Of a stretch of 64,000 nucleotides of DNA, positions 37,237 through 56,578 are shown one piece after another. The notes below the pieces were generated by a model that saw nothing but the letters and a program-made list of their open reading frames with translations, did no database searches and was not told the origin of the DNA. The DNA lies in assembly GCA_965223845.1 (NCBI GenBank), contig CBDCXR010000004.1:6176001-6240000 (forward strand). The letters are read 5' to 3'. Position 1 is the first letter of the stretch. Each line of letters starts with the position of its first letter. The translations under genes were made by a program, and so were the position numbers. Source of the stretch: Planctomycetota bacterium (GTDB lineage: Bacteria > Planctomycetota > UBA8108 > SXIK01).

Positions 37237-38934
37237 TCATTTCCGTTCCGCGACGAGCTTCCTCGCCTCACCGAGCACCTGATCGAGACTCCCGTGTCCG
37301 GCCACCCGGCCTCGTTGGTCGACGACCACGGAATACGGGATGCCGTGCACGTGGTACCAGCTAGAGAGGAAGCCGTAGCCTCGCCCTCCGCCGGGCTTCT
37401 TCGTATCGATGCAAATCGGATAGCTGAGCTTCTTCTCGTCGACCAGCTTCCTTACGCCTTCGAGCGATTTCGTCGGGGTGTGAACTCCGATCACGACCAC
37501 CCCGGATTTGTCTCGCCCTTTGTGCCAGCTCTTGAGGATCTCGAAGTCGTTCCGGCAGGGCGCGCACCAGTCGGCCCAGAACTCGAGAACGACCACTTTC
37601 CCTCGGAGATCGTTCCACGTGAGTGGCTTGCTGTTCAGCCAGACCGTTTTGGGGAAGTGCACGGCGGGCTTGCCGATCCGACGGTCCTGTTTCGCTTTTC
37701 GGTTTGCTTGCTCAGAGGCTTTCTTTGCGTGCGTGTCGAGGATCGCCTGCCACTCTTCGGGAGAGAACTCTTTCTTGTACGCGTAGAAAAGCGGCGGGTC
37801 ATACCGCCGGTCAGCGACTCGAACTCCTTCGCGCATTTCGACCTCGAAGAGCTCATCCGGAAGCGTCGTATTCACTCGGTGTTCGACGACCTCCAGATCC
37901 CGCCGGCCACGGATCTCGTCCTTCGTGCCCCGGCGGAAGAACCAGTAGCCGTACTTCAGCGGAAGTCGGAAGCCCGGTAGCAGCTCGCGGTAGTCGTCGA
38001 AGTATGTCTCGCTTGAAGGGTTCGCGGCCTCGAGTAGCTGAGCGACGAGACGTCGTTCCGCCTCCCTCTGTTTCTCCTCGGAAACGCCCTCTTTCCACGC
38101 TTTCCACGCCGCGACGTCCGCGATGGCCGCACCGGCGATGCGAGTCATCGCCTTCCTTCTCTCGTCATCCGGCACTCGCCGAAAGGAAGTCTGGCCGTAG
38201 AGGAACCCATCGTCGACCCCGACGTAGATACGCCGAGACGGCCAGCCGCGATCGGCGATGGTCCCGAGCACGTGACACTCGCGCCCGCGAACGTTCTCGT
38301 GGCCGAGAAGTACATATTCCTCCGGCGCGCCCCAGAAACGACTGCGATGCTTCCCGTCGCGGTCGTACCACATCGTCACCGATCCGATTTGGAACTCGCT
38401 CGAATTCCACCAAAACGAATGCGCTCCGATGGCGAGCCAGTAGAGACCGTCGATATGCGTGAAGTTCCCCTCCGGGCGGTCGTCGAGTGCGTAGCCTTCC
38501 TGCTTGTGCGTGAAATACCGTTCGTAGACTGTGGCCTGACGTCCGTCCCAAATCTGGAAATGAGTCGAGGCGTCGCGACGCTCGGAGGAGACTCGCATAC
38601 GAGCTCGATCGAACGCGAGCTCGATCGACTCCGTCTGCCGCGGACGTAGCGCGGGGAAGCGCTCCGGCGTCACGGTCTCGGGCGCGAACTTCTTCTCGAG
38701 GTCGGCCCGCTCGTCGGCGATCGTCTCCTTCGAGCGCGTCCACGTTCCGCGCATTCGGAGATGAAGACTCTCGAGATCGTGGATCTCGTTCTCGCGCGCG
38801 ACCAGCGCGCGAACGATGTCGGCGGCGTCAGCAGAGCTCGTCTCGGCACTCCCGTCCGCACGCGTGAAGTTCGTGCGAATCGCGATGGCGCCGAGAATCA
38901 GCAGCCAAACCGTACTACGGTGATGTCGTCTCAT
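37237..38934 (-). CDS. Exported protein with C-terminal TlpA/redoxin domain
   Basis: Signal peptide; WLNSKPL...LRGKVVVLEFWADWCAPC...IGVH...GIP. Confidence 0.85.
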   Translation of the reverse strand: MRRHHRSTVWLLILGAIAIRTNFTRADGSAETSSADAADIVRALVARENEIHDLESLHLRMRGTWTRSKETIADERADLEKKFAPETVTPERFPALRPRQTESIELAFDRARMRVSSERRDASTHFQIWDGRQATVYERYFTHKQEGYALDDRPEGNFTHIDGLYWLAIGAHSFWWNSSEFQIGSVTMWYDRDGKHRSRFWGAPEEYVLLGHENVRGRECHVLGTIADRGWPSRRIYVGVDDGFLYGQTSFRRVPDDERRKAMTRIAGAAIADVAAWKAWKEGVSEEKQREAERRLVAQLLEAANPSSETYFDDYRELLPGFRLPLKYGYWFFRRGTKDEIRGRRDLEVVEHRVNTTLPDELFEVEMREGVRVADRRYDPPLFYAYKKEFSPEEWQAILDTHAKKASEQANRKAKQDRRIGKPAVHFPKTVWLNSKPLTWNDLRGKVVVLEFWADWCAPCRNDFEILKSWHKGRDKSGVVVIGVHTPTKSLEGVRKLVDEKKLSYPICIDTKKPGGGRGYGFLSSWYHVHGIPYSVVVDQRGRVAGHGSLDQVLGEARKLVAERK

Positions 38935-38987
38935 TCGGCATGATCTCCGGCATTCTTCGGACCTGTTGTCTCTCGTTCGAACTTGCA

Positions 38988-41900
38988 TCACGGCTGAAGC
39001 CTCACTTCGAGTACGCCGACCTCTCCGGATCGAAGTGTCACCGTCGCCGGATCGGGGCGCGGAAAGCCATCGGCCGACGCCTCGACGGTCCACTCGCCCT
39101 CCTCGAGCGCGTAGAGTCGCCCGACCCCGAAGCGATCGATGGAGATTCCGGTCGAGCGCCCGCGCTGCTTTTCGTGCCCGCGGAGCTTGACCCGCAGCGC
39201 AGACGGCCGCGTCCGTTCATTGCCGACCACCTCGACGCGAAACTCGAGCTGCGCACCGGGCTCGAGATGCACGACCGGCTCGAGATCCTCGATCGAGGCG
39301 TACGCGATGTCGCGCGGAAGAAAACGGTCGAGCTCGAACGAGAGCGTGCCGCTCTCGGGTAGATCGAAGCAGATGAACCTTCCCTGGTGGTCCGTGACCG
39401 TTCGCGCATTCCCGTAGTAGACCGAGGCGCTGCGAAGCGGATCTCCGTCGGGGCCGCGAACAACCGCCGACCACGTCGTACCGCGACCGAGATCCTTGAG
39501 CTGAAGCGTGAGTTCCGCCTCGAATCCGACCGCCGCTTCGGGTTCACGGCTCAGCGTCGCAGTTCGGTTTATCCGATGCCCGCGATACGCCGCCGAGACG
39601 TGATAGTATCCGCCGGCGAGGCCGGCGATGCGGTAGTCGCCTGCGGCGTCCGTCTCCGCCCAAGAGCCGAGGGGCGCACCGGAGCGCATGCTCGCTGAGT
39701 TGAGCGCCGAGACGAGCGCGCCTTCGACACCTCGCCCGCCGCTGTCGACGACTCGCCCGACGATCGCACCTCCTCGCGTGAGGACGATATCGTTCTCGAG
39801 CTCGACCGTCGCCCCGACATCGAGCGGAGCGAGTTTCTCGGTGTGAGTGACGCGATACTCGCCGCTGACAGAGATCTGGATCTCGACGCCCGCTTCGACG
39901 CCGACGAAGCGAAAGCGTCCGTCGACCGAACTCCGCGCCGTTCTTCTCGTCACGGGCGGTGAACCCGAGACCGTGACTCGCGCACCGACGACCGGAAGGC
40001 CGGAGTCGTCGACGACTCGCCCGCCGATCTCACCACCGGGAGCGAGCGCCACCTCGATCGAACCTTTGTCGGTCCTCGCGGCCGCATCCGGCTCGATCTC
40101 GACGGTCGTCGCCGCGTAGCGAAAGCGATGCACCTCGACGACGAGGTTCTCGCTCACGAACCCACCGAGCTCGGCCCGGCCCTCCTCGTCTGTTCGGCCC
40201 TCGTCGACTTTCCGTCCTCTCTCAACTTCGCCTCGTGGAGCAAAGATCTGCACCTGCGCCCCCTCGAGGAGTTCTCTACTCGCGGCGTCGCGCACGACGA
40301 TCTCGAGCTCCTCCCCGCGCTCGATCGACACCTCACCGACATCGATCGCGGCGCCGGAGATCGAATTGGCGTCGTGCTCGGTCCAGTCGAGCTCGACGTC
40401 GACCCAGCCGTCGACCTCGAGCACCGCGCGCGAAACTCCATCGGGGATGGCGGCGCTTCGAAACGCACCATCGGTGTCGATCTCGACCGACACTCGCTTT
40501 CGTTCGAAGCGCAACTCGCCCTTCGTGCCCTCCGCGAACCTCGAGTCGCGTTCGGACGGTTCCGATTCTCCGACCTCGGGACGCAAGCGACCGACCACGC
40601 GGTGACTCGGAGCGAGCTCGACCTCGACGAAGTCTTCGGCGGGAACGAGCTCGCTGTGCTTCGACCAGCGCGGCCATTCGGGATGGCTGACGGAGATCGA
40701 GCGGTAGAGTCGCGACGCGTTCGCGATTTCGAACTGGCCGTCTTCGTCGGTCGTCGCTTCGGGCTCTAGATGGTGGTTGTAGTAGAGGTGATCGGGGTAG
40801 CGATCTTCGATCGCCGGATAGATCGTGACCTTTGCACCCCTGATCGGTTCTCCGGCCGGCCCCCGAACGACACCCTTCAGCGAAGCGCCGGAGTGAACGC
40901 GGATGACGACATGAGAGACCTCGCCCGCCTTCGGTTTGACCGGCGCGGAAAAAGCGGCGCCGTACCCAGGGCCGATGACTTCGAATGCGACCAGAGGCTC
41001 GAGCGTGTCGACGGAGAACCGCCCCCACTCGTCGATCTCGAACGAGACGAAATCCCTCGACATGTAGCGTGCCGCACGGAGACCTTGCGGCGACTCCGAG
41101 AAAGCGCTCGCCATGAGCCGCGCTATCATGTGTCCTCTTCCTCCTTCGACGGGGCTCCCGTCGCGAGCGTAGACGACTTCGCCCGTGACGCGCGCGCCGG
41201 GCGAAAGGCGAACGGTGACGTCCTGGTCGTCCTCGATGCGCTTTCGGTGCGAGTCCGTCACCGGCAGGTACCCTTCGCGCTCGACCTCGACGCTGATGTC
41301 GCTCTCCTTCTTTTCGCGCGGAGGGAAACGAAACCGGCCTTCGGAGTCGGAGCGCGCGGTCGCGACGATCTCCGCCGGACCGCCGGAACGCGGCGACTCG
41401 ACGAGCCGGACTTCGGCATCGCCGACGGGAGAGAGTGTGAGGCTGTCGATCACGACTCCGCCCACGCGGAGTGCGACCGCCGGCGGTGATTCTTCGATCG
41501 GAGGCGGCACGGCGCCCCCGACCGCGGGTGTGTCGGCGACTCCGGGCGACGGAGCGGGCTCGGAAGCGCCCTCGGCGCCCGTGGCGACCGCCGGCGGATC
41601 GCCGGCGCCGACGACGGAGTTCGGAGTCGATTCCTGGTCGGGCCACGCGAACCACACGCCTGCGGCAATTACGGCGGACGCGACGAGCGCGATCGATCCT
41701 TTCGCGGCGAGGCTGGAGGCACCGAGGTGCGCCGCCGTCGACGCGCCTGCGGAGTGTCCGCAGAGCGGGATCAGTGCGAGTGCCCAGGTGCGGCGCTTGC
41801 TCCCGGAGCTTCGTTCGTCATCGAACCGATGGTCGAGCCGAACCGCGATCTGCTCGAGCGCTCGGCGGATGCGAGTGCGCACGGTCTCGACCGGGATCTC

Positions 41901-42329
41901 GAGCCGCGCCGCGATCTCTCGCGGCTTCAGGTTCTCGTAGAAGCGAAGCAGAACGACGCGCCGGTAACGTTCGTCGAGTGCGCGGACGGCATCGGTCACG
42001 GCGCCGAGCAAGTCCTCGCGCTCGCGGAGCTCGTCGACTCGCTGCGGATTGTCCTTGCGTTCGAGCTGACGACGACGATCCGCCTGCAGCTCGCGCCGAC
42101 GCCTGCGTTCGCCGCTTCGCCGCTCGTGCCGCGCCGTGTTTCGCACGACACCGGCGAGCCAGGCGCGAATCCGACCGGGCGTTTGTGGAGGTCGTGCCAA
42201 GAACGCGAGCCAGGCCTGTTGAACCAAATCGTCCGCGCGGCTCGCGTCCTCGACGAGACTCCGTGCCAAGCGCTGTACGAACTCCCCGTGCTGCGCGATC
42301 AGCTCCCAGTTTGCGTCGTCCGTTCGCAT
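38988..42329 (-). CDS. ECF sigma-70 factor fused via a TM helix to carboxypeptidase-regulatory-like repeats
   Basis: ADDLVQQAW (region 2), EIAARLEIPVETVRTRIRRAL (region 4), TM segment, repeated GxVVDxxGxPVxGAxV...TDxxGxF. Confidence 0.9.
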   Translation of the reverse strand: MRTDDANWELIAQHGEFVQRLARSLVEDASRADDLVQQAWLAFLARPPQTPGRIRAWLAGVVRNTARHERRSGERRRRRELQADRRRQLERKDNPQRVDELREREDLLGAVTDAVRALDERYRRVVLLRFYENLKPREIAARLEIPVETVRTRIRRALEQIAVRLDHRFDDERSSGSKRRTWALALIPLCGHSAGASTAAHLGASSLAAKGSIALVASAVIAAGVWFAWPDQESTPNSVVGAGDPPAVATGAEGASEPAPSPGVADTPAVGGAVPPPIEESPPAVALRVGGVVIDSLTLSPVGDAEVRLVESPRSGGPAEIVATARSDSEGRFRFPPREKKESDISVEVEREGYLPVTDSHRKRIEDDQDVTVRLSPGARVTGEVVYARDGSPVEGGRGHMIARLMASAFSESPQGLRAARYMSRDFVSFEIDEWGRFSVDTLEPLVAFEVIGPGYGAAFSAPVKPKAGEVSHVVIRVHSGASLKGVVRGPAGEPIRGAKVTIYPAIEDRYPDHLYYNHHLEPEATTDEDGQFEIANASRLYRSISVSHPEWPRWSKHSELVPAEDFVEVELAPSHRVVGRLRPEVGESEPSERDSRFAEGTKGELRFERKRVSVEIDTDGAFRSAAIPDGVSRAVLEVDGWVDVELDWTEHDANSISGAAIDVGEVSIERGEELEIVVRDAASRELLEGAQVQIFAPRGEVERGRKVDEGRTDEEGRAELGGFVSENLVVEVHRFRYAATTVEIEPDAAARTDKGSIEVALAPGGEIGGRVVDDSGLPVVGARVTVSGSPPVTRRTARSSVDGRFRFVGVEAGVEIQISVSGEYRVTHTEKLAPLDVGATVELENDIVLTRGGAIVGRVVDSGGRGVEGALVSALNSASMRSGAPLGSWAETDAAGDYRIAGLAGGYYHVSAAYRGHRINRTATLSREPEAAVGFEAELTLQLKDLGRGTTWSAVVRGPDGDPLRSASVYYGNARTVTDHQGRFICFDLPESGTLSFELDRFLPRDIAYASIEDLEPVVHLEPGAQLEFRVEVVGNERTRPSALRVKLRGHEKQRGRSTGISIDRFGVGRLYALEEGEWTVEASADGFPRPDPATVTLRSGEVGVLEVRLQP

Positions 42330-43700: not shown

Positions 43701-44138
43701 TCAATTGTCGAGGGCGACTATGAAGAAGAAGTAAACGAAGAAGTTCGCAATCGCGACGCCGAGCGCGAGTCCGACCGCCGAGAGCCACGGGCGTGGTTCG
43801 CGCGTTCGGCGAAAGATCCAGACGGCCCAGGGGTAAAGGAGGAGCATGCTCGCGAGACCAGTGAGCACGCCGCCGGTCTGGAAATCGCGATTCCCCATGG
43901 CGCCTCCGATCAGAACCGATCCGCACGCGATGGTCGCGGGCAAGACGGCGACCGCGACCGATACGATGCGATGACCGATCAGCCGCCGCGTGATGCAGAG
44001 CTCCCACGGCTCGAGCTCGCGGGAACATTGCGGACAGGTGTGCGGTCGCCACACCGTAGGTGCGATGTCGAAGTGGCAACCCGGACAGTACCGCTGGCGA
44101 AGAATCGTCTCGGATTCGCGTTCAGCGCGTTCGGCCAT
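43701..44138 (-). CDS. Hypothetical membrane protein with N-terminal Zn-ribbon
   Basis: CPGC...CPQC followed by three TM segments; start overlaps the end of the upstream TPR gene. Confidence 0.7.
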   Translation of the reverse strand: MAERAERESETILRQRYCPGCHFDIAPTVWRPHTCPQCSRELEPWELCITRRLIGHRIVSVAVAVLPATIACGSVLIGGAMGNRDFQTGGVLTGLASMLLLYPWAVWIFRRTREPRPWLSAVGLALGVAIANFFVYFFFIVALDN

Positions 44139-46251
44139 CGTTCGCTTCGTTCGTTTCTCGCGGTGCGGCCGAGTTCGGGTCCTTCCCGAGACGAGTGAGA
44201 TTCGCCCGCGCCGGCGCAAAGCTCGGGTCGATCGCAAGGGCGCGCTCGAACGACTCCCGCGCCCGTTCGCGCTTTCCCCGGCGGAGCAGCAGAAGCCCGA
44301 GGTTGTTGTAAGGCTCCGGTACCCGGGAATCGAGCTCGATCGCGCGCTCGTACGCGACGATCGCCGCATCGAGATCGCCGAGCCGCCGGTAGACGACGCC
44401 GAGATTGTTGTAGACGTCCGAGAGATCGGGATCGAGCTCCCGTGCTCGCTCGAGAAGACGCCGGGCTTCTTCGTTCTCGTTCTCCGCGATCCGCACGCGC
44501 GCGAGGTTGTTGTGGGCGTTCGCGTTTCTCGGCTCGTGCCGAATCGCCGCGGCGAAGAACGGTGCGGCTTCTCGGACTCGCCCGCTCTTCGCGGTGAGAA
44601 CGCCGAGCGCATCGTACGCCTCTCCGTACGTCGGGCGTCGCTCGATCGCGTCGCGATACCAGCGCACGGCTTCTCGCGCAGCTCCGCGTCGCTCGGAGAG
44701 GACACCGAGATTGAAACTCGGCTCCGCGAAATCGTTTCGCAGCTCCCGGGCCCTCAGGAACGCCGCTTCAGCCTTGTCCCACTCGCCGTTCGCACCGGCC
44801 TCGCGAGTTCCCGCCTCGAGCGCGATCAGTCCGAGGTTGTTCCACGCCTCCGGAAAGTCGGGATTCCATTCGAGGAGCTCGCGATAGTGGCGCTCTGCGT
44901 CCGCGCGAGCACCCGCGAGGCGGAGGTCCGATGCGAGCTGAAAGCGTAGACGGGATTCCGCGAGGTGTCGGCTCGCCGCGATGCGCGGATGCGAGAGCGC
45001 GATCCCCTCGAGCGGCGCGGCGCGCCGGAATCGCTCGTTCGCATCTTCGGGCGTGCGCGCTGCGTCGGCGACCAAGGTCTCTGCATCCACCGGGCCTTTG
45101 TAGAGCGCGACCCATCGGCCGCGACCGTCGACGAGGAAGCTCGACGGGACCGGAAGCCGCGTGCTGAGCGGCAGCTGCGAATCGTGGAGGTGCTGAAGGA
45201 GACCGAGCACGGCCGGGGTCGCGCGCGCCCACGGAAACGCGAGGCGCAGTCGTTCCACCGCGCGCGGAGCCGCCTCGAGCGGCGTCGGATCGTCGCCCAC
45301 TCCGTCGACGCAGAGCGTGAGGACGCGGATTCGCGCTCGGTCGAACAATTCCTTCTGCTTCGTCCACGCGGCGAGTTCTTCGAGACAGGGAGCGCAGCGG
45401 CTCGACCAAAGGTTGAGTACGAGCGCTTCGCCGCTCCCGACGCGGAAGCCGGGCGATCCCGCCGGCGCGACCGCATCGAGGATTCCCTGCGGAAACGAGA
45501 CGAGGCTCACGAGCGGGATGCGGGCGGCAGCACGGGGCGCCTCCGGACGAGGACGCGAAGCGCGAAGCGCGAGCGCGTCGTTTCCCGGTGCCGCCGGGCG
45601 CGTCCACACCCGCGCGCGGCCCGCGCCTTGCTCGAGAACGAAGTGGCCGCCCGGCGACACCCCCTCGAACTCCTCGGTCGCGTTTTCTCGAGATCGCGTC
45701 GGCCACCGGACGCGAACGCGTTCGATCACCCGTGCCTCACCGTCCGGCGCGCGACCCAACCCGAAGTGGATCCACTTCGACGACTGCGAGAGGAATCCTT
45801 CGCCTGCGCGGAGTGTCTTCATGCGCGGTGCGTCTTCTCCCGCGACGAAGAGCTCGACCCGTGCGCCGATCGCATCTCGATTCGTTCCACTCGCGGTCGC
45901 GCGGAGTCGAAGCGCTGCGAAGTGATGGGCGATCGCCGCATCGACTTTCCCCGCGCCTCGGATGCGATTTCGGTAGAGACGAGCTCGCGGGGCGTTGCGG
46001 TTGGAAATCCAGAGGTCGAGATCGCCGTCGTGGTCCCAATCGACGAGTGCCACACCCCGCGAATCGTCCGGCGCGTCGAGACCGGACGCCCACGACACGT
46101 CCGCGAAGCGACCCGACGCACTTCCGAGGAAGCAACAATTGCGTTCCCGTGCGCTCCAAGACCGCCCTTCTTTCACCATCCGCGAGAGAGTGAAGAACGG
46201 GCTGAGCGCATCGCTCGCTCGATCGCCGACGTGGTCACGCGATGACGACAC
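44122..46251 (-). CDS. ASPIC/UnbV + redoxin-like (CxxC) + TPR protein; probably the C-terminal half of a UGA-recoded protein spanning 44122-48240
   Basis: SWSARERN, DWDHDGDLDL, NRDAIGARV, GEGFLSQSS..HFGLG, NLWSSRCAPC, several TPRs; in frame with the upstream ORF and no evident RBS before its GTG. Confidence 0.88.
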   Translation of the reverse strand: MSSSRDHVGDRASDALSPFFTLSRMVKEGRSWSARERNCCFLGSASGRFADVSWASGLDAPDDSRGVALVDWDHDGDLDLWISNRNAPRARLYRNRIRGAGKVDAAIAHHFAALRLRATASGTNRDAIGARVELFVAGEDAPRMKTLRAGEGFLSQSSKWIHFGLGRAPDGEARVIERVRVRWPTRSRENATEEFEGVSPGGHFVLEQGAGRARVWTRPAAPGNDALALRASRPRPEAPRAAARIPLVSLVSFPQGILDAVAPAGSPGFRVGSGEALVLNLWSSRCAPCLEELAAWTKQKELFDRARIRVLTLCVDGVGDDPTPLEAAPRAVERLRLAFPWARATPAVLGLLQHLHDSQLPLSTRLPVPSSFLVDGRGRWVALYKGPVDAETLVADAARTPEDANERFRRAAPLEGIALSHPRIAASRHLAESRLRFQLASDLRLAGARADAERHYRELLEWNPDFPEAWNNLGLIALEAGTREAGANGEWDKAEAAFLRARELRNDFAEPSFNLGVLSERRGAAREAVRWYRDAIERRPTYGEAYDALGVLTAKSGRVREAAPFFAAAIRHEPRNANAHNNLARVRIAENENEEARRLLERARELDPDLSDVYNNLGVVYRRLGDLDAAIVAYERAIELDSRVPEPYNNLGLLLLRRGKRERARESFERALAIDPSFAPARANLTRLGKDPNSAAPRETNEANDGRTR

Positions 46252-46263
46252 GACCTGTCGCCA
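46243..46263 (-). promoter_or_regulatory. Candidate bacterial SECIS hairpin
   Basis: mRNA reads UGA-AGCUUCUUC-UGGCGACA-GGUCG-UGUCGUCA: 8-bp stem with one G-U pair and a 5-nt loop starting GG at +18 after the UGA. Confidence 0.7.
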
Positions 46264-46272
46264 GAAGAAGCT

Positions 46273-48240
46273 TCAGAGATCGCCGGTGTCTTCGGTCGTG
46301 ATGTATCCGTTCGCGACGATGAGATCCTCCCAGCCGTCGAGGTCGACATCGACGAAGTTCGAGCTCCACGCCCAGCGGCCGCGAAGGACGCCTGCGTCTT
46401 CGCTCACGTCTTCGAACGAACCATCGGGCGTCGCGCGAAGGAGGGTGTTCCCGCGGCTGAATCGCCGGAGGCGCGAGCGAACGTCTGCTCTCGAGTTCGG
46501 CTTGAACTCGGCCTGCCCGGTCACTCGGCTCCCCGCGGCCGAGAACATGTTGCTCACGTAGACGTCCATGCGGCCGTCGCGGTCGAAATCGGCCCAGGTC
46601 ACGGACATCCCCGAGGCGCTGTCCTCAGCGTTGCGAGCGGCGGCGACGTCGATGAAGCGCGCGGTGCCTGACTCCGCGAGTTGGTTCTCGTAGAGAGTGT
46701 TCCGCCCGAAGTCGTTCGCGACGTAGAGGTCGTCGTCGCCGTCCCCATCGTAATCCTCCCACGCGGCGGCGAAGCTGAATCGCCGGTTGTTTTCGTCGAG
46801 ACCGGACTCTTTCGTCGCGTCGGTGAACTGCCACTCTGTTCCGTTCGTGCGGTCGTTGCGAAAAAGTGTATTCGGAGCGCCGCTGTTCGCGTCGTGATAC
46901 ACGAAGTCCTCGCCCACTCCGATCGACACGATTCCGGATTCCTCCGCGAGGTCGCTCCGGTTGTAGCCGCAGACGTAGATGTCGAGATCGCCGTCGCGAT
47001 CGTAGTCCGCCGCAGCGAGTGAGAACGAGTCTTCGCACGTCGAGAGGGTCGCGCGAACGTCGAATCTCCCGCGCCCATCGTTGGCTGCGAGAACGAGCAC
47101 GTTCGTCGTTCCGGCGGCGAGATCCTGGTCGCCGTCGCCGTCGAGATCGACGAGGAGAACGCCACGCGTGCTCTCGAGCCAATCGACCCCGCTTTCACGG
47201 GACGCGTCCGTGGCCGTTCCGTCGAGATTCTGGCGGTAGAGGCGATTTGGGAGTCCACCCTCCTGGGAGAGAAAGAGATCGTCGAGTCCGTCCCCGTTCA
47301 CGTCGCCGACGGCGATTCCCGGCGTCCCGAGAAGATTGAACGAGCGACCGTCTTGGATGCGCTGCGCCCAGTGGTTGTAGCCGAAGAGGAGATGTTTCGA
47401 GTACGACTCGTTCGCGCCGAGGACCGAGGGTGTGACCTCCTCGAAGAGGGGTGCCGGCGCCTCCGTCTCCTCGTGTTCGCCGACCGCGATCGACGCGAGA
47501 CGAAGGTCTCCCGAGGGCGCGCGACGCCAGCGCGTGCGCCAGCGCGCGTGAATCTCGAGCGGTCCCGCAGCTCGCGTCGCGGCGATCGATACGTGCTCGG
47601 TGCTCGCGACCGTACCGCCTTCCTCGACGACGCGGACCACTTTCATCTCGACGCGCCGTTCGATCGCGCCGGCGAGGCGATCACGAAGCGGACGGAGCGC
47701 GGTGACGAAACGCGCGACACCGGCCGTTTCACTGCCGCCGCCATCGCTCTCGTCGGGGGCGGCAGGGGCCGCTCTCGCGCGTGCGACGGAAAAGTAGCCG
47801 GCCGCCGACGGCGCCGAGTCGACTTTCGGGCGGAGAGTCTCTCCGCGGAAGCCCGGGTCGATGATCCTCGCGAGATCCGTCGGCGGGGGCGCGCCGCGGG
47901 ACGAAATGAGCTCACCCACCTTCTTCAGCCGCGCTTTCACTTCGTCGTGGAGAGCTTCCGACGCCCAGCCATCGCGGGAGGGGTCATCGCGCTCGTCCCA
48001 TCCCGGGACATCGTCCGACTCCGGGAGCGCGATCAGCTCGCGAACGAGCTCGACGCTGCCTTCGGCGTTTTCGACCGGAGCGATCGACGGGGGCGGCGCG
48101 TCCGAGACCTTCTCTACCCCGCGGTCGCAGCCGCCGACGAGCGCAGCGCCGGCGATGAGGAGTCCGACCGTGCGCGCGACGCCGCCCCGACTCCTCAGAG
48201 GAAGTTCGAACGTATCGCCGGCTCGTCGTCTATCGCGCAT
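46273..48240 (-). CDS. FG-GAP/VCBS-repeat (CRTAC1-like) lipoprotein; probably the N-terminal half of the UGA-recoded protein
   Basis: Lipobox-like VGGC; repeats GDVNGDGLDDL, DLDGDGDQDL, DYDRDGDLDI, DYDGDGDDDL, DFDRDGRMDV, DVDLDGWEDL; ends ANGYITTEDTGDL-TGA. Confidence 0.88.
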   Translation of the reverse strand: MRDRRRAGDTFELPLRSRGGVARTVGLLIAGAALVGGCDRGVEKVSDAPPPSIAPVENAEGSVELVRELIALPESDDVPGWDERDDPSRDGWASEALHDEVKARLKKVGELISSRGAPPPTDLARIIDPGFRGETLRPKVDSAPSAAGYFSVARARAAPAAPDESDGGGSETAGVARFVTALRPLRDRLAGAIERRVEMKVVRVVEEGGTVASTEHVSIAATRAAGPLEIHARWRTRWRRAPSGDLRLASIAVGEHEETEAPAPLFEEVTPSVLGANESYSKHLLFGYNHWAQRIQDGRSFNLLGTPGIAVGDVNGDGLDDLFLSQEGGLPNRLYRQNLDGTATDASRESGVDWLESTRGVLLVDLDGDGDQDLAAGTTNVLVLAANDGRGRFDVRATLSTCEDSFSLAAADYDRDGDLDIYVCGYNRSDLAEESGIVSIGVGEDFVYHDANSGAPNTLFRNDRTNGTEWQFTDATKESGLDENNRRFSFAAAWEDYDGDGDDDLYVANDFGRNTLYENQLAESGTARFIDVAAARNAEDSASGMSVTWADFDRDGRMDVYVSNMFSAAGSRVTGQAEFKPNSRADVRSRLRRFSRGNTLLRATPDGSFEDVSEDAGVLRGRWAWSSNFVDVDLDGWEDLIVANGYITTEDTGDL

Positions 48241-48484: not shown

Positions 48485-51400
48485 TCAGCACTTGTCGTAG
48501 AGATCGCAACCGAGCGAATCCGCGGGGCTCGGATCCGGGCCGCAGTCGGTTCCCTCCGGTCCGTGGCCGCCGATCGGCGGGGGGCCGTCTCCGAAGAGGC
48601 GATTGAGGCCGAAAATCGGATCGGCGATGTTGTACGCCGCGTCGCCGTTCACGTCCGCGGTCTCGGTACACGGCGGTGCACTGCCGTCGCCGAACAGGTC
48701 GTTCAGCATGAAGATCATGTCGGCGATGTTGACGGCGCCGTCGTTGTTGGCGTCGCCGCGACGGAACTCTTGGCCGCCGCCGTCACCCGTCACGGTGTCC
48801 GCGCCGGCCTCGAAGTTCCCTAGGACTTCGCTCCAGCTGAGCGCGCGGTCGTACAGACGAAACTCGTTGATCGATCCGTCGAGCATGGGATCGTCCCACT
48901 GCGAGCGCCCGAGCCAGTTGTTGAGCTCGAGCATGTCCGCGATCGAAAAGTGCGTATCATTCTGGTCGACCCGCGAACCGTCGACGAAGAGCGCAACTCG
49001 ACCTTCGTCGCCGTTCCAGACGACGACGATGTGCTGCTCGACGCCGTTCGGCATCGTCGCCGCGTTGAGTTGCCGCTCGACGCCCGTCGGGCCGTCACGA
49101 TAGCCGAAACGAAGCGAGTTTCCGCCGCTTCTCGGCGTGAGGAAGAGGTTGTACGTCGTCGCACCGCCATCGGAGAAGTCTTCGCCGCCGACGGAATTGC
49201 CGAGATCGAAGAGGCGCTGCCAAGCGGGAGAGAACGCATTCCCGTTCCAGGTTGCCCACAGCTCGAACGTGACGTTGTTCCCGAGCGCCGAGATCATCTC
49301 GTTCGGAAGATCGACGTAGGCGCCGGGCGGATCCGCGGGCGGTGACTGACCGTTGTCGTTCGAGCTCTGAGCGCCGGGGTTGTTGGTGAACACGGCCTGA
49401 CCGTCGAACGCGACCTCGCCGTAGCCTATCCCGTCCGCGCCGCCGTTCGCATCGGACGCGTCGGCCGTGAACGAGTATCGGTGCGCCGGACCGCTCGAGA
49501 GATCGGCGGGCATCACCGCATTCACCGTCCAGTTGACTTCCGCGGTTCCCTCCGAGTTGGTCGCCCTGACGCGAACCTCGAACGAAGCCGGTCGGGGGTC
49601 GGGAATCGTGTAGTTCACGAGACCGCCCGGCGTGACCGTCGCGCCGTCCGGAGACAGAGCTTCGACCGTCGGAACGGGGACTCCCGAGATCGAAAGTTGC
49701 CGAGCATAGACCGTTTCGGTCGGTCCGATCTCGTCCTCTGCCGGAACGCCGGTGATCTCGGGCGCGACGGGATCGAAGAAGTCACTGAACTCCGTATTGA
49801 AGTTGTGCTCGATCTCCGCGTCCCGGAGCGTGTCCGAGTGGATGCGGAGCCGCGCGATGGAGAGCGAGCCCTTGAGCGGAATGTTGACCGCGACGCCGTC
49901 CGGCTCGAGCTGGCCCGCCACCGTGATGCGCGTGCAGCAATGGGTGTCGATGGCGCCGACGCCGAGCTCCTCCTCGTTCTGGAGAACGCCGTCGGCGTAC
50001 ACCCGTGTCGTCGTTCCGTCGTAGGTATAAACGAGGTAATGCCAGATTCCCGCCTCGGGTGCGCCCGGTGTGAAGTCATTGTCGACCCAGCCGATGTCAG
50101 CGGTCGCGCCGCCCCAGTGTCCGATGGCGCCGAAGTTGCCGTGGTCCCCGTAGTTGAAGCTCATGTTCGAACCGTCGGGACCGCCGCGCCGTCCCCAAGC
50201 GACGATGGTCTCCTCGCTCGCGATCTCTGGGTTGTACACCCAGGCCTCGATCGATCGTTTCGGATCGGGGCCGATGATGCTTTCGGGCGCATTCTCGATG
50301 CTCTGGTAGAAGTCGTCGGTGAATCCGTCCGGCGGATTGAAGGTCACGGCGGCGACACCCTCGACCGTCTCGAGGAAGGGCTCACCGACTCGCTCGAAGT
50401 CGCCGGCCTCGCTGTCTTCGGCGAGATTGGTCCAGAAATCTTCGCCCGCCGATTCGTCGTCGGCGTCGAGGTGGACGACGAGCTGACCGGCGACCGCGAG
50501 CTGGCCCACCGGGGGAAGTCCCTCGCGCGAGACCGTCCACGATGCTTCCGTTTCGCCGGCTGAGTTCGATGCCTTGATCGTGATCTCGAAGGAACCCGGC
50601 TGCGGATCGGGAAGTGGGACCGAGAGCGAGCCGCGTCGCGCGAATTTGCCCGACTCCGTCAGAGACGTATTCGCGGGTGCCGCGACGATCTCGACCGACG
50701 GCAGCGGGAAGCCATCGACCGCGAACGTCGCCGTGTACTCCGCCTCCCCGGCGAGGTAGGTCTCGTCGTCCGGCACGCCCACAAAGACGGGCGCGACCGG
50801 CGTGATCGGGAAGTCTTCGCGCTCGAGCTCGTAGTTGTTGGCGATTTGCTCATCGGTAAGGACGCCGTCGTGGATGCGGAGGCGTCCGATCGAGAGCGAG
50901 CCCTTGAGCGGCAGATTGATCGCGATGCCGTCCGGCTCGAGCTGTCCGGCGACGGTGATGCGCGTCTCGCCGTGAGTATTGATCACACCCGGTCCCAGGA
51001 CCTCGTTGTTCGCGTCGCACTGCTCTTCGCTGATGCAACCATCGGCGTAGACGCGCGTCACCTCACCGTCGTAGGCGTAGACGAGGTGGTGCCACTGCCC
51101 CGCGACCGGCGCACCCGCGGTGAACGCGTTGTCGACCCAGCCGATGTCCGGGCCGTTGCCGCCCCAGTGGCCGATCGCGCCGAAGTTTCCGTGGAACCCG
51201 TAGTTGAAGCTCATGTTCGAGCCGTCGGGACCGCCGCGTCGTCCCCAGGAGACGATCGTCTCTTCCGACGCGATCTCCGGGTTGAACACCCAAGCTTCGA
51301 TCGTTCGCGTGGCGTCCACTCCAATGAGACCTTCCGACGCGAACTCGACGCTCTGATAGAAGTCGTCGGTGAAGTCGAAGTTGAAGGTGACGGCCGTAGC

Positions 51401-51622
51401 GCCGTTGATGTCCTCGACAAACGGCTCGCCGACTTTCTCGAAGTCGCCGACGGGGCTGTCGTCGACGAGGTTGATCCAAAAATCTTCGCCGGCGGATTCA
51501 TCTCCCGCGTCGAGGTCGACGACGAGATCTTCCGTCTCGAGCTGGGCGAAGGTGTCGCTCGGAACGAAGAACGTACCGAACGCGCACACTACGGCAATCG
51601 CGACCGCGCGATGTCGGTGCAT
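48485..51622 (-). CDS. Secreted acidic LamG-repeat protein with C-terminal dockerin-like domain
   Basis: AAGGAGG RBS, signal peptide, two near-identical LamG-like domains plus a third (WQRLFDLG, NNWLGRSQW), FRRGDANNDGAVNIAD. Confidence 0.9.
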   Translation of the reverse strand: MHRHRAVAIAVVCAFGTFFVPSDTFAQLETEDLVVDLDAGDESAGEDFWINLVDDSPVGDFEKVGEPFVEDINGATAVTFNFDFTDDFYQSVEFASEGLIGVDATRTIEAWVFNPEIASEETIVSWGRRGGPDGSNMSFNYGFHGNFGAIGHWGGNGPDIGWVDNAFTAGAPVAGQWHHLVYAYDGEVTRVYADGCISEEQCDANNEVLGPGVINTHGETRITVAGQLEPDGIAINLPLKGSLSIGRLRIHDGVLTDEQIANNYELEREDFPITPVAPVFVGVPDDETYLAGEAEYTATFAVDGFPLPSVEIVAAPANTSLTESGKFARRGSLSVPLPDPQPGSFEITIKASNSAGETEASWTVSREGLPPVGQLAVAGQLVVHLDADDESAGEDFWTNLAEDSEAGDFERVGEPFLETVEGVAAVTFNPPDGFTDDFYQSIENAPESIIGPDPKRSIEAWVYNPEIASEETIVAWGRRGGPDGSNMSFNYGDHGNFGAIGHWGGATADIGWVDNDFTPGAPEAGIWHYLVYTYDGTTTRVYADGVLQNEEELGVGAIDTHCCTRITVAGQLEPDGVAVNIPLKGSLSIARLRIHSDTLRDAEIEHNFNTEFSDFFDPVAPEITGVPAEDEIGPTETVYARQLSISGVPVPTVEALSPDGATVTPGGLVNYTIPDPRPASFEVRVRATNSEGTAEVNWTVNAVMPADLSSGPAHRYSFTADASDANGGADGIGYGEVAFDGQAVFTNNPGAQSSNDNGQSPPADPPGAYVDLPNEMISALGNNVTFELWATWNGNAFSPAWQRLFDLGNSVGGEDFSDGGATTYNLFLTPRSGGNSLRFGYRDGPTGVERQLNAATMPNGVEQHIVVVWNGDEGRVALFVDGSRVDQNDTHFSIADMLELNNWLGRSQWDDPMLDGSINEFRLYDRALSWSEVLGNFEAGADTVTGDGGGQEFRRGDANNDGAVNIADMIFMLNDLFGDGSAPPCTETADVNGDAAYNIADPIFGLNRLFGDGPPPIGGHGPEGTDCGPDPSPADSLGCDLYDKC

Positions 51623-51967
51623 GATCCAACCCTCCTTTGTTCGGCGCTGATTTCGCGCTTCCGGCAGAATCAGCGAAGAGATTTCAGCCCGCTTCGTTGC
51701 GTAGGCGACAAAGATCCTGGACCCTCGACCAGACCCGCCATCGTAGGCCCAGTCGGCGGGAGCCGTCAATCGACGGATTGTCCAGGGCGCAGGATCGCAG
51801 AGGCGGTCGGACGCCCGGTTCCGCGATTCCGTGTTCGATCCACGTGCGCTAAGCCCCGCGATCGGTGGTTCGTGAACTGTTTCGCGGCGTTGGGCCCCGC
51901 AGCTTCTCGAAGGGAAATCGTCCGTCTCGAGTTGCCGCGGATCGACGACCCCGACTCCGTCAGAAGA

Positions 51968-54072: not shown

Positions 54073-55740
54073 TTACTCGCAGCTCGAACTCTTCTCGCAC
54101 CCGAGCCCGTCCGCCGTCGGATCCACCCCGCAGACCGCACCCGGCGCCGCGGGAGCCCGACCACTCGAGAAGAGGTAGTTGAGCATGTAGGACGGATCCG
54201 AGATGTTCACCGCGCCGTCGTCGTTCGCGTCGAGCGCGTCGAGACACTCGACGTCCGCGCTTCCCCCGAAGAGGTGCGAGAGACTGAGGATCGCATCGCT
54301 GATGTCCATCCGCCCGCTCGCGTTCGTGTCGCCGCGGCGGAAGCGCGGTTCAGACGGAGGCGGATCGACGGGGTCGACCGGGTCCTCTGGGTCCTCTGGG
54401 TCCTCGGGGTCGACGGGCTCGCAGCTCCGCACGAGATGGCCGTCGTAGCCGAGCAGCGCGAGGCCGTACCGGCTGTCGGATCGGACGACCTTTCCCGCGA
54501 CGACGAGTCCGCGACCGGTTGCCGCGATCGCTCTACCGAACGAAGTCCCGTGCTCTCGCGCGAACTCGATCGACCGAATTCCTTTCGTCGCCCACGATGA
54601 ATCGAGAACCCCGTCGTCGCCGTAGCGATAGACGACGGCGGCATCGGATTCCGACCCCACCGTGAAGAATCCATCGGTCATTCCGAGTGCGATACCCGCT
54701 ACATCGTCCGGGACGAGCGCGTGTCCGAACCCCCCCGCGAAGTCTCGGTCGATTCCACCGTCGGGATCCATCCGAAACACGCCGTTTCCCGTCAGGAGGA
54801 GGTAACTGCCGTCAGGGCGGCGAAGGACGTCCTTCGCGGAGAGGTGCGGAGCGAGGGGGAGGTACTTCTTCCCGCGACGTCCGAACGACTCGTCGAGTCG
54901 ACCGTCGGGAAGATACCGAACGGCGACCGGACCATCGCCATCCCTCCCGAGGGCGAGGATCGAGCCGTCGCCGCTCACGTGCATCGCCGAAAGTTGGGCT
55001 CGGTCGCCGAGCTTCGTGACCACGACGCCGTCGCCCCCGAACGATCGATCGAAACTCCCGTCCGGGTGAATGCGCAGCAAGGAGAACTTGAGGTTGCAAT
55101 GACCGAAGAACGGACAGTCTTCGTCGGAGAACCCTCCGAGCACAATCCGCCCGTCGAAGAGCACCGTCATCGCGTGGACCTCTTCCCAGTTGTCGGTCCG
55201 GTTGATCATGAGCTTCCCGCCGTCAGCGAAGGACTCGTTGAGTGTTCCGTCCATATTGAGACAGACAAGCGCGCGGTTCGACCGATCGTTAGTCGTGAGA
55301 GCTACGTAGATGCGGCGAGAGATTCGTCCGCCCGTGACGGCGATCGCTCGCGGAAACGCCTCCCCGCGACCGAAGCTCAGGCGCACCGTTCCTAAATGTC
55401 CGAAGTTCCCGTCGATCTGACCGTCGCGGAGGTAGCGCGTCACGACGCCTTCCCCATCGATCTGACTGGCGAGGAGGATTCTCCCGTCCGATTGAACCGC
55501 GACTCGCGAAATGAACTTGCGACCTACGCCGGTCGGGTGGGAGATCGTTCCGGTGTGAGTCCCGTTCGGGTGGAGTGCGCCGAAACCGCACTCATCGGCG
55601 CGAGCGGCGTCGGGCCCGACAAACGAGAGTGCCGCGGCGAGGAACGTCGCCGCGGCGAGAGCTCGCGGTCGACGTTCGCGGGTTCGAGGCGAACGATCGC
55701 CGCTCCCCGACGCTCGAGTTCGAAGTCGAGACGGGGCCAT
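54073..55740 (-). CDS. Delta-60-type beta-propeller repeat protein with Pro/Asp linker and dockerin-like C-terminus
   Basis: AVQSDGRILL, RYLxDGxLDxSFG repeats, FRRGDTNASGRMDISD; start uncertain. Confidence 0.85.
   Translation of the reverse strand: MAPSRLRTRASGSGDRSPRTRERRPRALAAATFLAAALSFVGPDAARADECGFGALHPNGTHTGTISHPTGVGRKFISRVAVQSDGRILLASQIDGEGVVTRYLRDGQIDGNFGHLGTVRLSFGRGEAFPRAIAVTGGRISRRIYVALTTNDRSNRALVCLNMDGTLNESFADGGKLMINRTDNWEEVHAMTVLFDGRIVLGGFSDEDCPFFGHCNLKFSLLRIHPDGSFDRSFGGDGVVVTKLGDRAQLSAMHVSGDGSILALGRDGDGPVAVRYLPDGRLDESFGRRGKKYLPLAPHLSAKDVLRRPDGSYLLLTGNGVFRMDPDGGIDRDFAGGFGHALVPDDVAGIALGMTDGFFTVGSESDAAVVYRYGDDGVLDSSWATKGIRSIEFAREHGTSFGRAIAATGRGLVVAGKVVRSDSRYGLALLGYDGHLVRSCEPVDPEDPEDPEDPVDPVDPPPSEPRFRRGDTNASGRMDISDAILSLSHLFGGSADVECLDALDANDDGAVNISDPSYMLNYLFSSGRAPAAPGAVCGVDPTADGLGCEKSSSCE
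54362..54415. repeat. Six imperfect 9-bp tandem units encoding the (V/E)DP linker
   Basis: ggatcgacg gggtcgacc gggtcctct gggtcctct gggtcctcg gggtcgacg. Confidence 0.85.
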
Positions 55741-55945
55741 CGCACCGGCCATTCGGTCGACGTCCGGCCAGCGAGCGAAACCGTGAGTCGGAGAGTAGGT
55801 TCGAGCTTCCATTCTGGGCCTCCTTGAGACGGGGTGGGTGACGAGCTGCGGATCCGTCCGCCCGGATCCACTCGCCCCCGCGCCGTCCCGCGCGAAGAGG
55901 GGCCAGAATTCTTCGTTTTTCTCAGGGTCGCGACGGAATGAGACC

Positions 55946-56578
55946 TCAGCCTCGCTCGCTTGGCGTCTCCCCCGCGCCGCCGAGGGCGTCGTAAAGCCAA
56001 GCGCGCGCAAAGCTCCAGTCGCGCTTCACCGTCCGCGTCGACGATCCGAGCACCGCGGCGGTCTCCTCGACACTCAAGCCGGCGAAGTAGCGAAGCCGCA
56101 CGGTTTCCGCGAGTCGCGCATCGAACTCTTGTAGGCGATCGATCGCGTCGACGAGTGAGAGCGTGTCGTCGGGGTCGCTCGCCGCGAGGTCGGCGACGTC
56201 GAGAAACTCCCGCGCGTTCCCGCCCCCGCGCTTCTCGCGAGACCGTCGCCGCGCGTACTCGATGAGGATACGCCGCATCGCATCGGCCGCCGCGTGAAAG
56301 AATTGCGCACGCCCGGTCATCGGACGCGCGCTGAGATCTCCGACCAGACGAAAGTACGCCTCGTGGACGAGGTCGTCCGCCTGGAGCGTGTGTCCCGCGC
56401 GCTCACGGGCGATCCGGCCGCGAGCGATCGAGCGCAGCTCGCCATAGACGACTTCGATGAGCCGATCCCTCGAGTCGACATCTCCGGCGCTCACCGCCTC
56501 GAGAAGCGACGTCACCTCGTGGGGCGGCGGTGTCGCGGGATCGGGTTCACCTCGACTCGGTCGTGGAGGCTCGCTCAC
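55946..56578 (-). CDS. ECF sigma factor, kinase-associated TIGR02999-like type
   Basis: [63 protein letters not shown]. Confidence 0.9.

Follow-up and report, generated by a model that had tools for sequence, protein, structure and literature searches.

CRTAC1 is a secreted chain in which an FG-GAP propeller with calcium-type motifs is followed by a UnbV_ASPIC domain, and we know of no member of its family that contains selenocysteine (Sec) or is fused to a redoxin domain with a CxxC motif. Proteins of the TlpA, ResA and CcmG (DsbE) type have a thioredoxin fold with CxxC at a helix start and act outside the cytoplasm as reductants for specific partners. In the MsrA/MsrB fusion, a catalytic module is joined to a tethered, N-terminal thioredoxin-like domain that regenerates the catalytic residue, again outside the cytoplasm. 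Redox nucleophiles, whether Cys or Sec, usually sit at the N-terminus of a helix, and selenoproteins normally have Cys homologues. In the Sec insertion sequence (SECIS) of the Escherichia coli fdhF gene, the spacer measures 11 nt and the loop is GGUC, where a G and a U are essential. Here, we describe a gene that shares features with these systems. It lies in a stretch of 64,000 nucleotides from a Planctomycetota bacterium (GenBank assembly GCA_965223845.1, contig CBDCXR010000004.1, positions 6,176,001 to 6,240,000), called the window below, and our in silico analysis predicts that Sec is very probably inserted at an internal UGA, codon 656, of a CRTAC1-like propeller protein that also carries a TlpA-like domain.

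A single frame with one internal UGA

The gene is on the minus strand. The features that carry the argument are the following, in the coordinates of the window.

44122..48240, minus strand: whole gene, 1372 codons plus a terminal TGA, with one internal UGA (open reading frame (ORF) listing and translation)
46273..46275, minus strand: proposed Sec codon, an in-frame UGA at codon 656, in a column shared by 65/65 TGA-bearing homologues
46244..46262, minus strand: SECIS-like hairpin, GGCGACA / GGUCG / UGUCGUC, encoded by the W-R-Q-V-V-S codons

An initial annotation, made from the letters of the window, had proposed that two ORFs are one frame broken by TGA alone, and that gene callers would split such a gene. 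Both proposals are borne out. Translated with TGA as U, the gene is one frame of 1372 codons whose sole internal TGA (46273-46275, plus-strand numbering) stands in the context ...ANGYITTEDTGDL-U-SFFWRQVVSS.... The ORF listing divides it into 46273..48240(-), of 655 aa, and 44122..46251(-), of 709 aa, and the stored representative protein P0023 starts within the second piece, with 100% identity.

The genome to which the window belongs measures 7.93 Mb in four contigs and is 91.7% complete. Logan contigs from four runs, all of one sample, span the TGA with zero differing letters; the sample is possibly the assembly's own source and the agreement is hence non-independent, so that it excludes a gross assembly slip and nothing more. 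A pseudogene, or an error of sequencing or assembly at the TGA, has practically no chance of being the explanation. The bare stop codon speaks for it, and nothing else does, whereas the same TGA is present in eight paralogues of this genome and in 57 other distinct genes, and the frame is otherwise intact through all 1372 codons. We rejected it on the shared TGA and the agreeing contigs. Genome-wide reassignment of UGA was rejected too: the gene itself ends in TGA (44122-44124), as do 24 of the 56 natural stops found in the family.

Logan unitigs from the four runs that contain the window are interrupted precisely at the stretch with the hairpin and the motif (46246-46278), where their summed depth is 100-425 against 3-32 across most other bins. 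We read this segment of about 30 nt, with the Sec codon and hairpin, as a multi-copy repeat in the sample, contributed by the paralogues and probably by other organisms; it could be used as a probe for the family.

Conservation of the TGA across the family

When 40 related genomes were searched in six frames, matches at E<=1e-20 appeared in 30 of 41 genomes (the window's own counted), nearly every strong match having exactly one TGA. Alignment around the stop placed TGA at a common column in 29/29 genes that cover the site with a stop, eight of them paralogues from the window's genome, and the family motif there is DL-[TGA]-SFFWRQVV. In a sample of the phylum, the family was detected at E<=1e-40 in 50 of 301 genomes; among the matches listed (96), 88 have one TGA and 8 have none. 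TGA forms are also found in genomes of named species, under the record titles Planctomycetota, Phycisphaerae, Pirellulaceae, Akkermansiaceae, Verrucomicrobiales, Roseibacillus, 'Candidatus Multivorans', Gemmatimonadetes and Acidobacteriota, and TGA-bearing homologues occur in records titled Verrucomicrobiota.

Altogether, 65 distinct genes have a stop at the Sec column, and the stop is TGA in every one of them; the TGA is thus not peculiar to this assembly, and its conservation in homologues, which the initial annotation had named as a check, is observed. The natural stops of the same 65 genes are TGA in 24, TAA in 17 and TAG in 15, with nine genes running off their locus, and the local guanine-plus-cytosine content of the TGA-bearing genes ranges from 0.39 to 0.72. 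Because the natural stops are mixed and the composition varies this widely, the exclusive use of TGA at the Sec column is not an effect of composition.

We also scanned 1.84 billion representative proteins with HMMER, using residues 300-900 with C at the stop as the query, and obtained 58,300 proteins at E<=0.001. Among the best 150 of these, 58 have the residue before the Sec column as their last, which is what gene callers stopping at TGA would produce, and 80 read through; the remaining 12 comprise six that cover other parts and six without a local alignment to the 130-residue probe. The ESM Atlas has clusters of 'FG-GAP' proteins of 615-622 residues, with 62, 100 and 437 members, commonest in Planctomycetota and Verrucomicrobiota. 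Their length fits the N-terminal piece of the split gene, and the nearest Atlas cluster is commonest in Planctomycetota.

Three to six copies of the family are present in many genomes, and several genomes have a tandem of two TGA-form genes no more than about 3 kb apart (loci in G316:C206, G209:C1 and G312:C35). The family grows by local duplication, with the TGA retained. Only one listed match has a second stop (G275:C393:2577-3605, with one TGA and one TAG). This gene may be a decaying copy in a lineage that is losing Sec, or may reflect an incomplete, fragmented assembly (84% complete).

Translation past the UGA

In 46 aligned TGA forms, the amino acids just after the TGA are kept through synonymous changes: Ser is written AGC in 39 and AGT in 6, Phe TTC in 36 and TTT in 5, and Arg and Val are each written with four codons. 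The sole nearby candidate start, at codon +8, is GTG or ATG in 37/46 forms and another codon in 9/46. The non-TGA homologues are single chains in which the peptide DL-x-SFFWRQVV spans the junction.

These observations bear directly on whether the TGA is a true stop, with a propeller piece and an ASPIC-redoxin-TPR piece made by re-initiation and the hairpin acting as an element of coupling or attenuation. Such an arrangement would match the gene-caller annotation and the 58 library proteins that end at this point, and the frequent GTG or ATG at +8 would offer the second piece a start. It would leave unexplained why the stop is always TGA when the natural ends are mixed, why the seven codons from TGA to GTG are conserved as amino acids, how the nine forms without a start at +8 would begin the second piece, and why the site interrupts the propeller ahead of its last blade when homologues cross the same junction in one chain. 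As read from the sequence, moreover, the second piece has no signal peptide of its own, despite belonging to an exported protein. We regard a true stop as extremely improbable. Two separately initiated genes are very unlikely, to judge from the synonymous conservation, the single-chain homologues and the position of the stop within the propeller; the consistent two-gene arrangement that the initial annotation had named as contrary evidence is not seen among the non-TGA homologues.

A SECIS-like hairpin downstream of the UGA

Downstream of the UGA on the minus strand come a 10-nt spacer (46272-46263), a 5' arm GGCGACA (46262-46256), a loop GGUCG (46255-46251) and a 3' arm UGUCGUC (46250-46244). 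An outer pair, U46263-A46243, extends the stem to 8 bp, one G.U pair included, in agreement with the 8-bp stem and GGUCG loop first noticed here; across the family, the inner six to seven pairs only are conserved.

Covariation was examined in the 46 TGA forms, from which two genes (L041 and the L086 paralogue) had been excluded, having hairpins in another register. In this alignment, the six inner positions are paired in nearly all cells. Pair 24-34 is GU in 18 forms, AU in 17, CG in 7, GC in 2, UG in 1 and another combination in 1; pair 26-32 is AU in 39 and GC in 7. The covariation score is 0.253, compared with a mean of 0.122 for shuffled alignments (0/500 shuffles reach the observed value) and at most 0.086 with slid partners, so that the suggestion of a conserved, covarying hairpin is upheld. 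Several compensatory changes also change the encoded residues together: Pro or Ala replaces Ser at +9 in step with the Arg codon, and Arg replaces Gln at +6 alongside a change of Val to Ala or Thr at +8. Selection on the RNA predicts such a pattern. The excluded gene L041 has a very different peptide after the stop, AEFNTGAVAP, and still forms a 7-bp hairpin with a GGUC loop.

Among forms with the xxxWR motif, all six inner pairs are in register in 54/63 TGA forms vs 1/13 non-TGA forms (Mann-Whitney p 3e-8, relatedness uncorrected). Taken with the shared TGA column and the covariation, the feature goes well past what chance could produce. The nine other TGA forms include four that keep 5/6 pairs and four whose sequences fold in another register (the L086 paralogue, L107, L109 and L118); the hairpin of the ninth, L071, has 3/6 pairs and no alternative register assigned. 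An Rfam scan of 46100-46400 at E<=10 returned only a chance snoRNA match of 12 bits; no model there fits the hairpin, which is neutral either way.

The genome supplies its own positive control. A formate-dehydrogenase-like (FdhA-like) gene with the context CSRA-[TGA]-HAPTVAG has an 11-nt spacer, a 7-bp stem and a GGUC(U) loop, and the hairpin of the propeller gene shares this architecture: both start 10-11 nt past the UGA, with a 7-bp stem and a loop beginning GGUC. Unlike the SECIS elements of the FdhA-like gene and fdhF, the stem of the propeller gene is set by the WRQVVS peptide and has no evident bulged U. From its pairing pattern, the hairpin appears to behave as a SECIS. The FdhA-like molybdopterin enzyme gene, at G000:C4:4984214-4984963 (-) (locus L167), is, in this genome, a selenoprotein gene of another kind; it too has probably been split or mis-called.

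Selenocysteine machinery

All four components are encoded in the genome, each above its curated cut-off: tRNA-Sec scores 68.1 bits (gathering score, 47) and is called tRNA-SeC(tca) by ARAGORN, and the scores of selB (over one frame), selA and selD are 352.7, 536 and 308 bits. The selD match, at G000:C4:5317241-5318161 (-) (locus L017), sits in an 809-aa open frame, against a model of 311 positions, and this frame may be a fusion or a long upstream open stretch. Across the phylum sample, selA was found in 221/301 genomes: in 49/50 with the family, in 46/47 with the TGA form and in 172/251 without the family. It was also found in 9/9 TGA-bearing genomes from other named lineages. The machinery sought on the strength of the initial annotation is thus present, both here and, as judged by selA, in other TGA-bearing genomes. 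The rule is one-way: the TGA form implies Sec machinery, and the converse fails.

With the machinery in place, we can consider read-through of the UGA without Sec. The residue inserted would then be Trp, Cys, Arg or Gly, brought by a near-cognate tRNA, and the hairpin would stimulate read-through in a generic way. The evidence for translation in frame past the UGA does not of itself identify the inserted amino acid, and the hairpin is recognised by no Rfam model; to that extent this explanation accounts for the data. It does not account for selA in the TGA-form genomes, nor for a spacing, stem length and GGUC-type loop that match those of the genome's own Sec hairpin. Trp, Arg and Gly are rare or absent at the column in the read-through homologues, and a sense codon would be simpler than a UGA and a hairpin kept across 65 genes. 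We consider Sec-free read-through very improbable. The in silico recoding signals and the machinery fit SelB-dependent Sec insertion at codon 656 of one chain, and the proposal that this UGA is a Sec codon is supported by the conserved TGA, the covarying hairpin and the machinery alike.

Domain architecture and predicted structure

The protein encoded by the joined frame has the following parts.

48127..48240, minus strand: N-terminal signal peptide, lipobox-like LVGG-C38, MRDRRRAGDTFELPLRSRGGVARTVGLLIAGAALVGGC... (sequence inspection, no predictor)
45961..47343, minus strand: FG-GAP / CRTAC1-like beta-propeller, about residues 300-760, with DxDxDG calcium-type motifs (Pfam FG-GAP_3, Foldseek, AlphaFold2 (AF2) model)
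45685..45873, minus strand: UnbV_ASPIC domain, residues 790-852 (Pfam PF07593, E 5.2e-12; profile match to CRTAC1 residues 379-483)
45019..45525, minus strand: TlpA/ResA-like thioredoxin-fold domain, about residues 906-1074 (Foldseek, family profile vs PDB)
45385..45396, minus strand: C949-A-P-C952 redox motif at the start of a thioredoxin-fold helix (sequence and AF2 model)
44221..44886, minus strand: C-terminal TPR array, residues 1119-1340 (Pfam TPR_11, TPR_2, TPR_1 and others)

By eye, the N-terminus MRDRRR...LLIAGAALVGG-C38 resembles a lipoprotein signal and suggests an exported lipoprotein, which agrees with the membrane-anchored, exported protein first envisaged. Pfam FG-GAP_3 matches five stretches of the protein (E 9.1e-38), and PF13517, PF01839 and PF07593 all exceed their gathering cut-offs, placing the FG-GAP propeller and UnbV_ASPIC within one chain; with the TPR matches, the domain order that had been read from the translation is recovered by Pfam. 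The UGA falls within the propeller, ahead of the last blade, and a further FG-GAP-type DxDxDG blade, VDWDHDGDLDLW, lies C-terminal of it, as had been noticed in the translation and as the profile agrees.

We modelled residues 291-1090 with AF2 from a 60-row alignment, with a mean predicted local distance difference test (pLDDT) of 91.1 and a predicted template modelling score (pTM) of 0.93. In the model, Sec656 (model residue 366) is the opening residue of helix 366-374 (residues 656-664), and C949 and C952 (model residues 659 and 662) flank the start of helix 660-671, an arrangement that is, in the model, the canonical one of thioredoxins.

The best Foldseek match is murine CRTAC1 (PDB 9etn_A), with E 2.1e-24, a template modelling (TM) score of 0.71 by target length and 18% identity in the structural alignment, and the family profile matches CRTAC1 at E 8.1e-31. 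The HMMER alignment to CRTAC1 stops short of the Sec-bearing segment, and Sec is not placed on the CRTAC1 structure by sequence. Unlike CRTAC1, the bacterial protein adds a lipoprotein signal, the TlpA-like domain and the TPRs.

For the thioredoxin-fold domain, Foldseek gave ResA, TlpA, CcmG and DsbE at E 2e-7 to 7e-6, with a probability of 1.00 for ResA and TlpA, and the family profile matched TlpA (1jfu) among PDB sequences at E 1.6e-16. The CAPC thioredoxin-like module of the initial annotation is thereby confirmed as C949-A-P-C952 within a TlpA-type domain. Against the NCBIfam model of TlpA, NF047696, the protein scored 26.1 bits (E 6.3e-6), below the curated cut-off of 230, so that the likeness to TlpA is one of fold and motif only and does not extend to equivalog membership. 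At E<=0.01, this copy is matched by neither of the Pfam models AhpC-TSA and Redoxin, yet many homologues match them. Where TlpA, ResA and CcmG are free-standing, anchored proteins, the domain here is one module of a 1372-residue protein whose presumed partner would be the intramolecular Sec.

The thioredoxin-like domain of the MsrA/MsrB fusion (chains 2h30, 2jzr and 2fy6) also matches the family profile, at E 3e-4 to 4e-4. The likeness lies in a catalytic module with a tethered TlpA-like domain; the catalytic modules themselves are unrelated (Msr folds against a CRTAC1-like propeller), the catalytic residues of those chains are Cys, and Pfam finds no Msr domain in our protein.

Replacement residues and the link between Sec and CxxC

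In the 80 representatives that read through, the Sec column holds E in 27, S in 17, D in 14, A in 7, N in 5, C in 3, Q in 3, M in 2, R in 1 and T in 1. A further 113 full-length homologues have mostly S, A, N, E, G or D there, and Cys in 3. The initial annotation had expected either a conserved TGA or Cys in the residue aligned to the UGA; the first is found and the second is not, the column being mostly Glu, Ser, Asp, Ala or Asn when it is not Sec. The rarity of Cys does not count against Sec, because the TGA, the hairpin and the machinery all agree, but it makes the family atypical. The common replacements (Ser, Asp, Asn, Glu, Ala, Gly and Thr) are frequent helix-start residues, which would explain a non-Cys replacement once a redox role had been lost.

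The second motif changes with the first. CxxC (949-952) is intact in 58/59 Sec forms vs 10/80 non-Sec forms; the other 70 non-Sec forms comprise 14 with xxxC, 4 with Cxxx, 47 with neither Cys and 5 gapped at this site. In the 113 further non-Sec homologues, CxxC is intact in 12. Cys702 is likewise enriched in Sec forms, 66% vs 17%. On a FastTree tree built from the propeller-ASPIC columns without the Sec column, there are at least 21 changes of Sec state and at least 20 of CxxC state. In 10 phylogenetically independent pairs that differ in Sec, CxxC differs in the same way in a mean of 7.4, in the opposite way in 0.1 and not at all in 2.4 (sign test, median p 0.016, range 0.004-0.22). The idea of a Sec/dithiol redox system, raised when the gene was first noticed, is backed by this co-occurrence.

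Given Sec insertion, we consider a functional coupling of Sec to CxxC quite likely. The principal alternative is that Sec is inserted without being a catalyst recycled by CxxC, and instead acts as a selenium-dependent switch between full-length and truncated protein, contacts a metal or ligand, or caps the structure. The tolerance of the position speaks for such a role: the read-through homologues accept many residues, rarely Cys, the replacements are typical of helix starts and Sec opens a helix in the model, and the 21 or more changes of state on the tree suggest an easily exchanged position. The propeller also bears DxDxDG motifs of the metal-binding type. On the other hand, a purely regulatory or structural Sec would not predict the link to CxxC, which survives the independent-pairs test, and the enrichment of Cys702 points the same way. 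We therefore hold a non-catalytic Sec to be unlikely. Insertion and coupling taken together, their joint chance being roughly the product of the two, make recycled Sec catalysis a reasonably probable reading, less so than either of its parts.

A number of observations weigh against that reading. Cys, usually the hallmark of selenoprotein homologues, is nearly absent at the Sec column (6/193 non-Sec homologues), and the column is variable (E, S, D, A, N, G, Q, M, H, Y, R and T), which would fit a non-essential, helix-capping position. CxxC is kept in some non-Sec forms (the 10/80 and 12/113 given above) and is absent in one Sec form (L071). The WRQVV peptide that codes for the hairpin is conserved in non-TGA forms as well, so that the protein explains part of the conservation, and certain non-TGA forms (L072, L074, L103 and L106) still make five to six pairs. 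One TGA-bearing genome (G275, 84% complete, in 990 contigs) has no selA match, while a congener has selA. Non-TGA forms were found in selA-bearing genomes in 5/6 of those examined, the selA-less one being a complete Tunturiibacter chromosome. Finally, counts across relatives are phylogenetically dependent, and the independent-pairs test on the FastTree tree is the only one in which this is corrected.

Proposed mechanism

We propose that one gene would yield a 1372-residue exported lipoprotein comprising, from N to C, a propeller, ASPIC/UnbV, a TlpA-like CxxC domain and TPRs. The UGA at codon 656 would be decoded as Sec by SelB and tRNA-Sec, steered by the in-gene hairpin 10 nt downstream (7 bp, GGUCG). 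At the N-terminus of its alpha-helix, Sec656 would be the redox-active nucleophile of the propeller module. Its cycle would include a selenenic acid or a selenenylsulfide, and its recycling would fall to the tethered, TlpA-like domain with the CxxC motif. By analogy with TlpA, ResA and CcmG, this domain may in turn be kept reduced from the cytoplasm. No CcdA- or DsbD-type donor is evident among the neighbours examined, no search aimed at CcdA or DsbD having been made. Relatives with Glu, Ser, Asp or Ala at the Sec column, most of which lack CxxC too, would be redox-dead versions of the scaffold. Of these steps, we infer the redox chemistry, the recycling by the CxxC domain and the export.

Relation to known selenoproteins

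On this mechanism, the family would be new among selenoproteins, its scaffold included, and atypical in the residues that replace Sec. We lean slightly towards the broader view that a large, multi-phylum family of CRTAC1-like propeller lipoproteins represents a new kind of selenoenzyme, in which a helix-start Sec outside the thioredoxin fold is served by a tethered CxxC, and in which loss of Sec to Glu, Ser or Asp is accompanied by decay of CxxC.

Such a family would have been easy to miss. Its replacement residue is rarely Cys, and it therefore escapes searches for Sec/Cys pairs. As described in the main texts of PMC12013277 and PMC13188914, the discovery and annotation of prokaryotic selenoproteins largely require Cys-containing homologues, a requirement that would filter the family out. 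The literature searched contained no relevant paper linking selenoprotein or selenocysteine to FG-GAP, ASPIC, CRTAC1 or VCBS. The main texts of PMC13188914, PMC13326102, PMC12013277 and PMC9312934 contain no mention of an FG-GAP, ASPIC, VCBS or propeller selenoprotein, and that of PMC4807772 no mention of FG-GAP or ASPIC; the supplementary family tables (BSepDB Table S2, and the planctomycete candidates of PMC4807772 Table S9) lie outside this scope and could list the family. No NCBIfam model covers it, and the public names of its homologues ('FG-GAP-like repeat', 'VCBS repeat' and 'TPR/peroxiredoxin') make no mention of selenium.

If Sec is confirmed, several environmental phyla would gain a selenoprotein family represented by many genes in each genome, and the poorly understood bacterial CRTAC1/ASPIC proteins would have a first mechanistic handle, an extracytoplasmic selenol/dithiol redox centre. 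Confirmation would also provide a natural series from Sec to Glu, Ser and Asp, with co-decay of CxxC, for the study of selenoprotein gain and loss, and would mean that hundreds of split genes need re-annotation. If the new-selenoenzyme view is right, a whole class of selenoproteins is invisible to methods based on Sec/Cys pairs, and, with eight copies in this genome, such proteins may form much of the selenoproteome in some planctomycetes and verrucomicrobia.

Neighbouring genes

The neighbours in the window are a Laminin_G_3 protein, an extracytoplasmic function (ECF) sigma region with CarboxypepD_reg repeats, an aldo-keto reductase, a kinase-TPR protein and a 618-aa protein with an AhpC/TSA tail; none of these window neighbours is a clear operon partner. 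A conserved-neighbour signal was considered and dropped as evidence: the 8-kb flanks of the eight paralogues share only a C-terminal dockerin-like domain of about 90 residues. By tblastn, such domains number about 305 in the genome, a density of one per 26 kb, and their presence near 6/8 paralogues is at the level of chance. In the window, the domain, together with a Cys-rich tail, ends two large, secreted proteins, the Laminin_G_3 protein at 48485-51769 (-) and a DUF5122 propeller protein at 54073-56010 (-).

The ORF at 38988-42329 (-), of 1113 aa, has N-terminal ECF sigma-70 regions 2 and 4 plus four CarboxypepD_reg repeats; it represents an uncommon fusion, unless the automatic ORF call has run two genes together. 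The 618-aa ORF at 37237-39093 (-), some 5 kb away from the proposed Sec gene, matches AhpC/TSA-Redoxin at residues 474-598 only, its N-terminal 470 residues being without assignment.

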